Positions 12,201-21,200 of a DNA stretch of 64,000 nt are shown here, in pieces. Each line of letters opens with the position of its first letter. Position 1 is the stretch's first letter. Made by a program: the position numbers. Origin of the DNA: Escherichia coli (lineage in GTDB: Bacteria > Pseudomonadota > Gammaproteobacteria > Enterobacterales > Enterobacteriaceae); the NCBI RefSeq assembly GCF_044324875.1, contig NZ_CP172185.1; one strand, written 5' to 3'.

Positions 12201-15200
12201 CAGCGAAGAAATAACGATCCCGGTATGTGAGCCCTGCTCAGTCAGCTTGTAGCGAGCCAGCTCTTTGCCGGTTTGATCGACAACGCGGCAGAACGCGTTT
12301 TCGACGTCATTGAACGACTGACCACGGAAGCTGTTTACCGTAAACGCCAGGTATTCAACGTTTGCAGGCAGTCGGGAGAGGTTGACCTTAATCACTTCAT
12401 CGTCACCGTCACCCTCACCGGTCAGGTTATCGCCACTGTGCACAACAGCGCCGCAGGTGGATTCCAGTTTGCGGAACCAGATGGTGTCAATTGTTTTACC
12501 GGTGCTGTCCATTAATACGCAGCCAGCATCGAGATCGATTGAGTCGTTGCCTCCAAACAATCCTCCAAGAAGACCTTTTTTCTTAACCGGATCCCAACCG
12601 AGACCGAAATGAAGCTGGCTTAATGCAGATGATTCTTTGCTGAGTGATACCGTCTGGTTCTTAACTAATGAAACCATGTTTTATTCCTTAAAATGGTAAT
12701 GACCGAGACAATCAAAGGTATATTTAGTAACTGACGAAGAAAATCATATCATGATGAAGTTCTCTGACAAGGGAAATTTTGGTAGTTTTCTGTAAAAACA
12801 CAAAAATAAATCCTTTTCAGGGTGTTAATTTTCTATTTTTAATTTAAATATCAATATTTTATCACGAATCCAAAAAACACTGGCGCACTCCATAACCACG
12901 GAAGTTATTAATCATATTATGATTGACATGCAGCTTAGACACTCATAGACTCACTTCTCAATCATAAATTTGCATGGCGTTCCGGATAATTAAAAAAAAT
13001 GAACAAGAAAATTTGGTTTATGGAAGGTTTATCCTCCCAGCGAGATATTATTCATGGGGTAAAATCATTTGCACAAAAAAATAATTTTGCCATTACCGTT
13101 TTTGCCTCCCACCGTAACGAAAGAAATGAAATCCTTTCCGTTGCCGATTATTCTTTGACTGAACCTGAAGATCCTCAAAAACGTCTTCAGTTTATCCAGG
13201 AAACCATTCAGACCTACGGTATCCACCATATTCATACTGGCCGTAACAGCCAGTGGTTTGAAGAACACCGTTCAGCCATTGAATCGACCGGTGCCACCCT
13301 TACTACCGGTGCAACGGGCGTCGACTGGTTAACTCTGGCTGACGAAAAAGTTACTTTTGCTCAGTTTATGGAGCAAAAGGGTCTCCCGGTCGTACCATCC
13401 TGGCGGGTGAATACGCTGGCAGAATTAAAGACACACCTCGCGGCCCCGCCGTTCACTGACAGCCCGGTATGCGTGAAGCCGGTGACGGGTATCTATGGCA
13501 TGGGATTCTGGCGCTTTGATGACAGTGCTTCGCCTATGGCCGTCTTTAATCATCCCGAACATCGTCTGGTCAGTCCGCAACAGTATATTGCAGCAGCATC
13601 TGCTGCTGAGTCGTTTAAACCCCTTGTTTTGATGCCGTACCTGCCAGGCCCGGAATTTTCCGTCGATATCCTCGCGGATAAGGGCGAAATACTCGCAGCC
13701 GTGGGACGCCGTAAGGAAGGGGCTATCCAGTATCTGGTAAACGAAGGAAGCGCCTGGGAACTGGCGTGTGACTGCGCCCGTGTTATGAAGGCCGACGGGC
13801 TGGTGAATGTTCAGACGCGAAACGATGTGAATGGCAACCCGGTGCTGCTTGAAACCAACATGCGTCCGTCAGGGGGGGTGGGTTATACCCTTCACAGCGG
13901 GGTGAACCTTCCTGGGTTATTTGCTGCCTTTAAGCTCGGTCTGATGTCTGAAGATATGGTACGCCAGAGCGCTAAAAACACCTTTTCTCCGGTTGCGGTG
14001 AGATCCATTACGGATGTAATTGCATACCCGGAATCACTCTCTAACCTTCTGAGTTAAGGCGTATTTATGTCTGATATCCTCGAAGATATGATTTATCGCC
14101 GTACCCTCTCATGCGGTACGATTCAGGTAACCCGTGACCAGGGTGAAGTTTCGCTCGATGACCTGTTTGACATCGCTGAAAGACGTAACCCGAAACGCGC
14201 CTTTCTGTTTGTCAGCAAAGTACTCGGCAGGCACATTCCCGTGCCACCCTCAGTCATGCGGCAGGCCTACAGACAGCTTGCCAGCCAGTTCCCCTCGACA
14301 CTGACAGGACCCGTACTGTTTATCGGTATGGCTGAAACCGCCGTTGGGCTTGGGGCCGGTGTATTTGATGAAGTGCGCCACCAGCATCGTGAATCTGTCT
14401 ATCTGACCTCTACCCGTCACCCGGTTGATGGCACGTTGCTTTGCGAGTTCAAGGAAGAACACAGCCACGCCACCGATCATCTGATCTATCTGCCAGATGA
14501 TGAAGAGAAAAGACGTCGTGTTACCAACGCACGAACGCTGGTTTTGATTGATGACGAGGCAACCACCGGTAATACCTTTATTAACCTGCTTTCTGCCCTG
14601 CGTAATACCGGCAAGCTTCAACATATTGAACAGGTTATCGCCGTAACGCTGACCGACTGGAGTGGCAATGCCCTGTCGGAGCGCACCCCCTTGCCAGTCA
14701 CTTCGGTTTCGCTTGTAAGCGGTCAGTGGGGATGGACCCCATTACCTGATGCACATGTCCCGGACATGCCTAAAGTCAACGTAACTTCACGAGGAGAATG
14801 GGACATCCAGGGAAAACAGTCCTGGGGCCGACTGGGGATGCTCGCACCTGCGGCCGATCTCGGCCATGAGGTCTCCGTCCACAAGGGGGAACGTATTCTG
14901 GTTCTCGGGACCGGGGAATTCGTCTGGGAGCCGTTCCTGCTTGCTGAACGGCTCGAAGCTGCCGGAGCACAGGCATTTTATGGATCGACCACCCGCTCCC
15001 CTATCGCCGTTGGTTATGCCATTGAGTCCGCCATTTCCTTTACGGATAACTACGGGCTGGGCATCCCCAATTTTGTCTATAACGTCGCCCACCAGCAGTT
15101 TGACCGCATTCTTGTGTGTACTGAGACACCCGCAGAAAGTATTGACACGCAGCTTCTTAAAGCGCTGGCTGAGGTTGCGCCCGTCGTGGAGATTGTTACC

Positions 15201-18200: not shown

Positions 18201-21200
18201 ACCGGGCCGCGCGTTCCGGAGGTGGGAACCGGACGGCAACCGACCCGGGGCTCAGACAGGCGCTTGAGCAGGAAGCCGCTGAACTCATGTCAGCGGTGAC
18301 CGCAATCCGTAATATTCACGAGCTCACGCCGGATCCAAAAACAGGCATCAGCTGGGCAGAGCTGGAGGCAGTATACCTGCATAACAGAACGTCGCCTTTT
18401 CAGGTTCCGGCACCGGTACGTCCAGAAAAGCCAGACTACCTTGCATTGCCGGAAAAGCCTGCCGAGAGCGAAGGCATTAGTTTTCTGGGTAAATGGTTTG
18501 AATCGGAATCAGCTAAAGCTGAGCGCCACGCCGAAAATCTTCGCCGGTGGCAGCAGGAGCTGATTGATGTGGAGCGTGAGAATACCCTTCGACAGCACCG
18601 GTACCAGCAACAACGGACGGCCTGGGCCGAACAGTATGCAAACTGGAAGTTTGAAGCTGAAGAACATGAAAAACGGCTCGCCACGGCTCAGGCAGATGCC
18701 CGGCAGCAGTTCCGGACAGACGCCGCGTTTTTCGAATCATACCTGGCGGGTGTGCTGGCAGAAACTGAATGGCCGCGTGAAACGCTTGTTGCATTTGAAG
18801 TAAAGCCGGAGCTATCAGCAGTCCTGCTGGACGTTGATTTAGCTGAGATTGAAGATTTCCCTGATAAGATTTACGGCGTTAATGCCCGGGGCACGGAGCT
18901 GACGGAAAAAGCCATGACGCAAAAAGCCGTACGCGAAAACTATGCCCGCCACGTTCATGGCTGCTTGTTCCGCCTGGTCGGTATCGTTTTACATACGCTA
19001 CCTTTCGACAACGTGATTGTGTCAGGCTTTACGCAACGGGTCAGTAAGCGGACCGGCTATCTGGAGGATGAGTATATCCTGTCCTGCAAATGCACTCGCA
19101 GCCAGATGTCGTCAGTAAATTTTGCAGGCATAGAACACATTGATCCGGTTGAAGCGTTAGGCGATCACCCGGTTATTCGAAAGATGAGCAGTACCTTCAT
19201 TTTTCAGCCTATTGAACCACTAACCCTTTAAGCAGGCTAAATCTTACGATGCAATTAAATACCAGACAGGCCCGGATTTTTAAGCTTGCCAACTTACTGG
19301 GCACCGGCAAGCCCGTTTCCGCTGCCGACATTATAACCAGTCTGGAATGCTCAGAGCCGACATTAACCCGGGCCCTCAAAGAGCTACGCGAGTCATATTC
19401 TGCGGAGATCAAATACAGCAAGGCAGGTCATTCCTACCATCTCGTTAATCCGGGCCAGCTGGATAAAAAGACCCTTCGCCGGATGAATGAAGCGCTCGCA
19501 CAGAATGCTGAACTGAAAACCGGTGAGTCCACAGGGAAGGTCGTACTCGATAAGGATAAAAAAACAGCCGTGTCATTATCGCTACGCATGCGGATTTTAA
19601 GAAAAATTGACCGTCTGGCTGCGCTGAGTGGCTCGACCCGAAGTGAAGCGGTAGAGAAGCTGGCTCTGCACTCCGTTGATGAACTGATAAAAGAATACAG
19701 CGCTAAAAAGTCCTGACGCTAAATCTCAGACCGGGGTGAAAACCCCGGTTTTGTCATATTTCACCTCTGTATCTGCGTGACGGAGTTTTGATCTATTCTC
19801 CTCCCGCAATGTCAGCAGCGCCTTTCTGCCTACAAAACCTGGTGTCTTGACATCCTCTTGTGCTACACATCAATCTTTGGGCGATTTACACTCCATTCAT
19901 GCAGATCTGTGATGTATGATGATTTTCAGTAACCGGCTCATTTAAACCGTCTGGTCTGTTTCCTCCGGCTCTACAAAAATAATGTCCATCATTTTTAATG
20001 GACATTATCGTATGAAACACCGGACCTGGATCACTGAAGCTTTACGTCTTCACTTTGAAGAACATTTACCCCGGGTTGTGGCCGGGCGTCGCCTGGGTGT
20101 ACCAAAATCAACAGTTTGTAGTATGTTCGTGCGCTTTCGGAGAGCTGGCCTTTCGTGGCCTTTGCCCGCAGGCATGTCGGAGCAGGAACTTGATGCCTGC
20201 CTTTACGGACAATTTTCCACGGTACCAGTCGTACGTCCTGAAAGCACCGTTATATCCGAAGCCCCCGTGGTAAAAAAACGTCCCCGGCGGCCCAACTTCC
20301 CTTATGAGTTTAAAATCGCCTTAGTGGAGCAGTCACTGCAGCCCGGAGCCTGTGTGGCGCAGATCGCCCGGGAAAACGGAATCAACGATAACCTGCTCTT
20401 CAACTGGCGCCATCAATACCGGAAAGGTGGCCTGCTGCCTTCCGGAAAAAATATGCCGGCACTGCTTCCCGTGACGTTAACGCCGGAGCCGGATAATAAA
20501 ATCCCGGCCCCCGCACAGGAACCAGAGCAGATAAATACACCGTCCGACAGTCTGTGTTGTGAGCTGGTTCTGCCGGCCGGAACTCTCAGGCTTAAAGGTA
20601 AACTGACGCCGGCGTTATTACAGACACTTATCCGCGAAATAAAAGGGAGCAGCCACTGATGATATCTCTCCCTGCAGGTTCGCGTATCTGGCTGGTTGCA
20701 GGTATCACCGATATGCGAAATGGCTTTAACGGCCTGGCATCAAAAGTTCAGAACGTCCTGAAGGATGACCCGTTCTCCGGACACCTGTTCATCTTCCGCG
20801 GACGCCGGGGTGACCAGATAAAAGTGTTGTGGGCTGACAGTGACGGACTGTGCCTCTTCACCAAACGCCTGGAGCGGGGCCGCTTCGTCTGGCCAGTCAC
20901 CCGTGACGGCAAGGTGCACCTTACTCCGGCTCAGTTATCCATGCTTCTTGAAGGTATCAACTGGAAGCACCCGAAACGAACGGAACGCGCTGGAATCCGC
21001 ATATAACCCGTTGTAAAGTGAGGATATGGACACCTCACTTGCTCATGAGAACGCCCGCCTGCGGGCACTGTTGCAGACGCAACAGGACACCATCCGCCAG
21101 ATGGCTGAATACAACCGCCTGCTCTCACAGCGGGTGGCGGCTTATGCTTCCGAAATCAACCGGCTGAAGGCGCTGGTTGCGAAACTGCAACGTATGCAGT

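Follow-up and report, generated by a model that had tools for sequence, protein, structure and literature searches.

The closest described counterpart of the locus examined here is a gene set linked to the tellurite-resistance (ter) operon: Anantharaman, Iyer and Aravind (Mol Biosyst 2012) reportedly predicted a Ter-associated module that makes a ribose-containing small molecule, and PF15632, PF15609, PF12500, PF11202, PF15608 and PF15617 are Pfam families defined on that module. We analysed a 64,000-nucleotide (nt) stretch of Escherichia coli DNA (contig NZ_CP172185.1 of assembly GCF_044324875.1), referred to throughout as the window, in which seven plus-strand genes at 12999-19716 lie divergent from terZABCDE(F). 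The window shares with the 2012 module all five enzyme families, their order and the linkage to TerD, TerB and TerC, and is a textbook member; its extras, a DUF4236 gene and terW, are found in some lineages only. An initial annotation of this DNA had matched the genes to the module known from comparative genomics, and the enzyme families, conserved order and ter linkage bear out that match. It had also put the cluster forward as the best candidate for an uncharacterised system, which overstates the novelty: the module, described in 2012 and with Pfam families built on it, is real and was correctly identified, but is already known and is annotated in thousands of genomes. In the published model, phosphoribosyltransferases (PRTases) and a HAD-family enzyme yield a nucleoside or nucleotide derivative that TerB and TerD may sense (PMC7824862, PMC11994780). 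Papers still term the module putative (PMC11994780, PMC8115787, PMC7824862), so the earlier statement that its product is experimentally unassigned stands.

Other described systems resemble the window to differing degrees. The ter loci of IncHI2 plasmids (R478, pKL53-L), Klebsiella virulence plasmids and the chromosomal ter islands of pathogenic E. coli carry the same seven genes at 98-100% DNA identity, and the window differs from them in being a short form of the locus and in having its terF split by an IS3-family insertion sequence (IS). The ~7-kb stretch itself is 100% identical in DNA sequence to several RefSeq E. coli chromosomes that bear the same annotation. CriT/CrpP (Haemophilus influenzae Bcs3) and T. 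composti 7SHG likewise pair a PRTase-fold transferase with a HAD phosphatase; these, however, occur as domains within polymerases of capsule or O-antigen and act on glycans, whereas the Ter proteins are separate and are accompanied by a lyase and an ATP-grasp enzyme. Genes for a glycan polymerase, a glycosyltransferase or an ABC transporter are absent from the window's operon and were not seen among the conserved neighbours in 80 loci screened for module and Ter proteins only, and the likeness to CriT/CrpP and gPRT is one of fold and mechanism only. De novo and salvage nucleotide pathways, with PRTases of the OPRT, HGPRT and PurF type and the ATP-grasp enzymes PurD/PurK/PurT, combine the same folds to build and decorate a ribotide, but they are without TRSP, PELOTA_1 and the CitE-like lyase, and the Ter proteins fall below their family cut-offs.

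We favour, with a probability of about 0.6, the reading that the operon is a Ter-associated biosynthetic module, repressed by TerW, whose product is a nucleoside-like metabolite acting with TerD/TerB/TerC. To the published picture the present analysis adds, from comparison of loci, a distinction between a core of five enzymes and two genes that are lineage-specific, and the evidence of gene fusions, together with a fold-level case against the 'cysteine protease' label of one of the enzymes and a parallel to ribofuranosyl transfer dependent on phosphoribosyl pyrophosphate (PRPP). The operon comprises the following features, with protein lengths in amino acids (aa):

12923-12951, plus strand: sigma-70-like operon promoter, TTGACA-17-TAGACT
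12999-14057, plus strand: ATP-grasp ligase of the ATPgrasp_Ter family, 352 aa
14067-15209, plus strand: type I phosphoribosyltransferase PRTase_2 with C-terminal TRSP, 380 aa
15202-15975, plus strand: HAD-IIB phosphatase, 257 aa
15977-17056, plus strand: PRTase_1 ('StiP') fused to an L7Ae/Pelota-like domain, PELOTA_1, 359 aa
17056-18012, plus strand: CitE/malyl-CoA-lyase-like TIM-barrel C-C bond lyase, 318 aa
18023-19231, plus strand: DUF4236 protein, 402 aa
19249-19716, plus strand: terW, winged helix-turn-helix (HTH) regulator, 155 aa, as annotated in RefSeq
19728-19751, plus strand: intrinsic terminator-like hairpin with a 10 bp stem, 6 GC pairs and a T-rich tail, 12 nt past the terW stop

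Every open reading frame (ORF) of the seven was found intact where the initial annotation had placed it, and all seven gene lengths match RefSeq proteins; the two motifs it had quoted were also located, TLVLIDDEATTGNTF in gene 2 and SDLDDT in gene 3. Read from the sequence, the junctions include an 8-nt overlap between the PRTase_2 stop and the HAD start (ATGAATAA, 15202-15209) and a 1-nt overlap between the StiP stop and the lyase start (TGATG, 17054-17058). The third junction that had been described as an overlap (TAAAATG, 15973-15979) is an adjacency, with a 1-nt spacer between the HAD stop and the StiP start. The other intergenic gaps measure 9, 10 and 17 nt. Given these tight junctions, one upstream promoter-like site at ~12923 and one strong downstream terminator at 19728-19751, 12999-19716 has the layout of a single transcription unit.

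The proteins were assigned to families by profile hidden Markov model (HMM) searches with Pfam and NCBIfam models. Six of the seven fall in family-specific Pfam models and not in housekeeping families, and no module protein reached a housekeeping cut-off in the NCBIfam search. The ATP-grasp protein matches ATPgrasp_Ter (PF15632, 7.9e-37) and has invariant K117, K160, E285 and N287, the E-x-N lying within an LLETN motif; compared with the Protein Data Bank (PDB), its profile is nearest to CPS-like ATP-grasp enzymes, an L-amino-acid ligase and Ddl, and points to carboxylate-amine ligation. Gene 2 matches PRTase_2 (PF15609, 2.2e-62) and TRSP (PF12500, 2.1e-22). Its PRPP loop, LIDDEATTGNT, has D162, D163, E164, T167, G168 and T170 invariant in 28 sequences, and it is at this loop that the PRTase_2 profile aligns with the OPRT domain of UMP synthase, which is the closest, and with PRPP synthetase, PyrR and HGPRT. 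HMM matches of the HAD protein are weak (TIGR01486, 7.6e-9; TIGR01484, 4.4e-5); its motifs I (D9-x-D11-x-T13), II (T66), III (K198) and IV (G222-D223-x-x-x-D227) show no variation across 69 homologues.

The lyase matches C-C_Bond_Lyase (PF15617, 1.9e-112). By its profile it falls in the CitE/malyl-CoA lyase branch of the HpcH/HpaI superfamily: matches to PDB structures ranged from 1.4e-21 to 3e-12 and included 3qll (1.4e-21) and CitE 1sgj (3.5e-16), as well as acyl-CoA lyase, CLYBL and malyl-CoA lyase structures. Among 54 diverse sequences D44, R83, E134, G166, K236 and P241 do not vary, and conservation of E43, D169 and H240 reaches at least 90%. Lying below the NCBIfam equivalog cut-offs, the protein is not citrate lyase itself; its retention of the acidic and basic residues of the superfamily suggests that it works by enolate chemistry, with a CoA thioester as the probable substrate. 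When single sequences were searched against the PDB, there were zero matches for the ATP-grasp, PRTase_2, StiP and DUF4236 proteins and only weak CitE matches for the lyase. For the module-specific families a close sequence match to a solved structure was not found, and profiles reach distant relatives only.

Gene 4 matches StiP/PRTase_1 (PF11202, 6.4e-88) and PELOTA_1 (PF15608, 2.3e-24), and its predicted structure is a type I PRTase fold joined to an L7Ae/Pelota domain. The description of this gene product as a second PRTase-like protein is thus supported both by Pfam and by the fold search, in which CriT/CrpP-type proteins and 7shg were among the top structural neighbours of the model. In the PRPP loop, VFVDGWTGKG, D154 is invariant and G155 replaces the second acid. 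A comparison of StiP with PRTase_2 by hhalign was not significant (probability 3.5%); the aligned register fits the pyrophosphate (PPi) and PRPP loops.

To delimit the conserved part of the cluster, loci were collected with the lyase alone as seed, using a 14-sequence alignment (a wider one of 54 lyase sequences had proved too diverse) and one genome per GTDB species. The best 80 loci, mostly from Gammaproteobacteria, were retained, and their six-frame ORFs were searched with the window's proteins (module and Ter) only. They span Enterobacterales, Pseudomonas, Acinetobacter, Moraxellaceae, Methylococcales, Chromatiales and Thiothrix, and include Burkholderia, Novosphingobium, Desulfovibrio and one metagenome-assembled genome of Bacteroidota; Gram-positive versions of the module are known from the literature (PMC11994780). 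StiP/PELOTA was found in 78 of the 80 loci, PRTase_2/TRSP and HAD in 71 each, and ATP-grasp in 56; among the Ter proteins, TerB was found in 68 loci, TerA in 65, TerZ in 64, TerD/TerE in 60 and TerC in 50. TerW (17/80) and DUF4236 (6/80) were far rarer. The order PRTase_2-HAD-StiP-lyase is invariable across the loci, and genes of the TerD, TerB or TerC families occur in all but four, which agrees with the proposed co-occurrence of the module with ter genes; two of the exceptions are on contigs shorter than 7 kb, and the other two, L076 and L077, are full loci of ~21 kb.

Judged by this gene content, the conserved biosynthetic core is five genes, not seven, and the 'seven-gene module' of the initial annotation holds for the five enzymes but not for DUF4236 and TerW, which are lineage-specific. 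Natural fusions, found among lyase representatives clustered at 50% identity, tie the lyase physically to each of three partners: StiP/PELOTA (P0291, 683 aa), PRTase_2/TRSP (P0349, 874 aa) and HAD (P0324, 543 aa). A three-enzyme minimal version, without lyase and without ATP-grasp, is carried by the Acinetobacter jumbo phage vB_AbaM_ME3 (NC_041884.1, 202145-217206; L086), where a vWA protein, a membrane protein resembling TerC, and TerD accompany PRTase_2, HAD and StiP in a row; Iyer et al. (PMC7824862) had already noted the jumbo-phage version. A StiP homologue is also present in MT836648.1, a human-gut phage contig of 15 kb that lacks annotation. In a group of Pseudomonas loci (L024, L025, L028, L030-L032, L035-L039, L041-L043) the whole locus is co-directional, whereas the enterobacterial layout is divergent; there, ATP-grasp and an extra gene of ~390 aa, weakly TerF/TerA-like, are followed by PRTase_2-HAD-StiP-lyase and then by terZABCDE.

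Within E. coli the module was present in 956 of 5426 complete genomes and terZ-E in 1009; it was also present in 1343 plasmids, mostly conjugative, from Escherichia, Salmonella, Enterobacter, Klebsiella and others. Judged by the ratio of nonsynonymous to synonymous substitution rates (dN/dS), all seven genes are under purifying selection: the ratio was 0.09-0.40 per gene against a 98%-identical E. coli copy, with few substitutions. Against relatives at 73-80% identity dN was 0.10-0.42 and dS was saturated, so that no ratio could be given; DUF4236 evolves fastest. These values are better evidence of retained function than the argument made initially, that the module has stayed intact beside recent IS insertions, which is weak.

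Gene 6 matches DUF4236 (8.5e-21) and encodes, from N- to C-terminus, a beta-hairpin DUF4236 domain, a long helix and a conserved alpha/beta domain for which a known fold relative was not found. The gene lies between the lyase gene and terW only in loci of the type of E. coli, Escherichia sp. and Yersinia nurmii; terW comes directly after the lyase gene, at a distance of 150-280 bp, in Enterobacter, Rahnella, Serratia, Proteus, Morganella, Xenorhabdus and others. Four Pseudomonas-type loci carry a DUF4236 homologue elsewhere, after terE and beside terF, Psychromonas has a 41%-identical homologue between TerD genes with no module enzymes nearby, and ~33%-identical homologues occur in unrelated neighbourhoods. 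Being present in so few of the 80 loci, and in some apart from the enzymes, DUF4236 is best regarded as a TerD-associated accessory outside the enzyme core. TerW, found in Enterobacterales alone, gave weak HTH_11 and RHH_1 matches and has a ribbon-helix-helix-like C-terminal region. It is a repressor that has been studied before and is reported, in a paper citing the original work, to shield E. coli from the lethal effect of cloned terZA (PMC4633105).

The seven genes face the ter operon across a short intergenic region, in which the operon promoter listed above also lies:

8127-12677, minus strand: terZ, terA, terB, terC, terD and terE, intact tellurite-resistance operon
12096-12677, minus strand: terZ, divergent from the operon
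12678-12998, no strand assigned: regulatory region separating the divergent terZ and ATP-grasp genes, with promoters and two palindromes
12770-12743, minus strand: promoter-like site for terZ

The palindrome AATCATAT(C/T)ATGAT occurs at 12742-12755 and 12910-12923, its sole two occurrences in 64 kb, where 0.17 would be expected. The paired ATCATATNATGAT sites are ~168 bp apart; one extends into the terZ -10 hexamer, and the other lies directly against the operon -35 hexamer. The pair is kept in 17 of 17 TerW-positive loci from other genera, whereas among six divergent loci without a detected TerW it is absent in four, reduced to a single site in one and present as two degenerate sites in one. 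Kravchenko et al. equate the palindrome with the TerW footprint, and TerW is described as repressing both divergent operons (PMC7843439); the two palindromes are probably TerW operators, predicted from their placement and co-occurrence. We considered and rejected the possibility that they were new sites, as TerW sites were already described in that paper. With Rfam, neither the operon nor the DNA upstream of it gave a match to a riboswitch or any other RNA, and the only matches were the ALIL pseudoknots of IS3-family elements (described later).

Under the reading we favour, PRTase_2 would move ribose-5-phosphate from PRPP to an acceptor with a nucleophilic group, in all likelihood a base-like heterocycle or a precursor of one, and the HAD enzyme would then strip the 5'-phosphate, leaving a riboside. 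The CitE-like lyase would make or trim a carboxylic-acid unit by the enolate chemistry proposed above, and the ATP-grasp enzyme would form an amide from a carboxylate and an amine; in the five-gene version these two would construct a side chain derived from a carboxylate, or attach one. StiP/PELOTA may add a second phosphoribosyl group, or it may bind a (phospho)ribosyl or RNA ligand. The nucleoside-like product would work with the membrane-associated TerD/TerB/TerC complex in stress and in phage and colicin resistance, with TerW holding both divergent operons repressed. For the PRTase and HAD steps there is a precedent, as PRPP-dependent ribosylation followed by 5'-dephosphorylation, by a PRTase-fold enzyme and a HAD enzyme, is established for CriT/CrpP of Bcs3 (PMC10299916). 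As cited in PMC11994780, Acinetobacter baylyi StiP is reportedly needed for tellurite resistance and normal morphology, and this reported tellurite sensitivity of a stiP mutant is the sole genetic hint for the module.

Several observations weigh against the biosynthetic reading. A product, substrate or activity of the five enzymes is not reported in the literature searched to mid-2026. The terZ-F genes alone give E. coli K-12 tellurite resistance (PMC8115787), and terBCDEF alone suffices for it; the module is therefore dispensable for the tellurite phenotype under those conditions. Since ATP-grasp is found in only 56 of the 80 loci and the phage version has neither lyase nor ATP-grasp, the five-step scheme is not universal. 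Finally, StiP, with D-G in place of the acidic pair in its PRPP loop, may be non-catalytic.

Two alternatives retain some standing, and both are unlikely in our view. Under the first, the enzymes would modify a macromolecule: StiP, guided by its Pelota domain, would phosphoribosylate an RNA, or else a protein or a glycan, after which the HAD enzyme would remove the 5'-phosphate. The C-terminal domain of StiP does match the K-turn RNA binders L7Ae, YbxF and Snu13, and CriT/CrpP provides a precedent on the capsule of H. influenzae type b (PMC10299916). L7Ae/Pelota-like domains could, however, equally bind a phosphoribosyl ligand, and the structural match to 7shg does not discriminate, as HGPRT and PyrR score almost equal to it. 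Moreover, genes for glycosyltransferases, polymerases, export or RNA processing were not seen conserved beside the module in loci screened for module and Ter proteins only, and the presence of the lyase and ATP-grasp enzymes suits small-molecule assembly better. The more specific proposal, that StiP-PELOTA is no nucleobase PRTase but a PRPP-dependent phosphoribosyltransferase acting on a macromolecule, most plausibly RNA, with HAD trimming the 5'-phosphate, we consider decidedly improbable; if it were true, the Ter module would be a ribosylation system of a new kind, directed at nucleic acids (or proteins) and linked to a membrane stress complex.

The second alternative keeps the chemistry of the favoured reading unchanged and alters only the role of its product, which would be a toxic or chain-terminating nucleoside analogue, viperin-like and triggered by infection, instead of a TerD/TerB signal. 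Inhibition of phage by R478 ter clusters, as cited in PMC8115787, would fit such an anti-phage effector, and the minimal module that the jumbo phage carries together with TerD, TerC and a vWA protein suggests a role in inter-virus conflict. According to a citing paper, however, the R478 inhibition maps to insertions in terZABCD and not to the module operon. The operon is, moreover, co-repressed with terZ by TerW and not obviously phage-triggered, and a search of PADLOC-DB v2 gave no significant defence-system match: PRTase_2 had two marginal matches to retron-type PRTases (E ~1e-3), and the HTH region of TerW matched a WYL model (4.1e-5).

We regard as very unlikely a third alternative, in which gene 4 is a cysteine protease and the cluster works by proteolysis in stationary-phase or tellurite stress and not by biosynthesis. 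RefSeq labels 15977-17056 as 'cysteine protease StiP family protein', and Pfam has renamed PRTase_1 'StiP'. The name comes from the A. baylyi StiP study, which, as cited in PMC11994780, reported protease activity in addition to the tellurite and morphology phenotype, and a nearly invariant C229 does adjoin an invariant H227. The invariant residues of StiP nevertheless cluster in the PRTase-type phosphate-binding loops SLVRAG and VDGWTGKG, the fold search with the StiP model found no protease-like structural neighbour, and the predicted structure does not resemble a recognised peptidase fold. The gene is also fused to the lyase gene in some genomes and is always flanked by HAD and lyase genes. 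In A. baylyi (locus L062) a StiP-family protein 51% identical to that of the window is encoded within the same five-gene cassette beside TerD-family genes, and is a candidate for the gene studied as A. baylyi StiP; its protease label is likewise unsupported by the predicted fold. On these structural models, 'cysteine protease' is probably a misnomer for StiP, one that has spread to thousands of genomes. A last possibility, that the genes are ordinary paralogues from nucleotide salvage or central metabolism hitch-hiking beside ter on mobile elements, draws on the commonness of PRTase, HAD, ATP-grasp and CitE folds in housekeeping metabolism, but is effectively refuted by the unmet NCBIfam housekeeping cut-offs, the Ter-specific Pfam families, the fixed gene order, the fusions and the ter linkage on chromosomes of distant taxa.

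The surroundings of the favoured module, the terF gene included, have been reshaped by insertion sequences:

5144-6003, minus strand: terF (encoding a vWA protein), 3' part, by comparison with the intact terF of TUM9803
~6004-7311: IS3-family element splitting terF
7312-7698, minus strand: terF, 5' part, 129 codons, by the same comparison
19888-25300, plus strand: IS66-family element abutting the operon, with tnpA at 19982-20659 and tnpB at 20659-21006
21026-21652 and 24106-25242: IS66 tnpC in two pieces, interrupted by IS21
~21502-24142, minus strand: IS21 element with istA/istB, nested in the IS66 tnpC
25745-29620, minus strand: gene for a 1291-aa S6-family autotransporter peptidase, from the annotation of the identical TUM9803 region
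29932-31491, minus strand: gene for an AbgT-family transporter, from the annotation of the same region

The disruption of terF by an IS, reported initially, is confirmed, the element being of the IS3 family and terF being intact in TUM9803. Three copies of the same IS3-family element were recognised by identical ALIL frameshift pseudoknots of 116.2 bits each, at 633-749 (minus strand), 6337-6453 (plus strand) and 53696-53812 (plus strand), and the second of these belongs to the copy inside terF. In TUM9803, an IS21 element is placed instead between terW and the IS66 element. Farther downstream, the GC content of the window falls to 0.36 at 30-32 kb.

Beyond terW the window departs from the long form of the locus, as seen for example in NCCP15648, in which terW is followed by terY1, terX, terY2, TerY-C, a PP2C phosphatase and a kinase. 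Homology between the two runs out at 19926, where the IS66 element lies, and the terY1-terX-terY2-TerY-C-PP2C-kinase segment was not found anywhere in the 64 kb. The window is therefore a short form of the locus, and the description of the module as 'intact', while true of all seven ORFs, does not extend to a locus without terY, terX, PP2C and kinase genes. The short form is common: of the ~953 E. coli genomes positive for the module, only 325 hold most of the extra terY-kinase segment.

Roughly a fifth of complete E. coli genomes have the ter locus, of which the operon described here makes up half. The locus also occurs on IncHI2 resistance plasmids and Klebsiella virulence plasmids, and it affects resistance to tellurite, phage, colicin and oxidative stress as well as gut fitness (PMC8115787 among other sources). 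The window makes the question of the product no easier than any other ter-positive strain would, but it offers a natural genotype for minimal requirements, with five enzymes, DUF4236, TerW and terZ-E, and without terF and without TerY, kinase and phosphatase. The identity of the module's product would explain what TerD, TerB and TerC respond to, and could reveal a new signalling or antiviral riboside.

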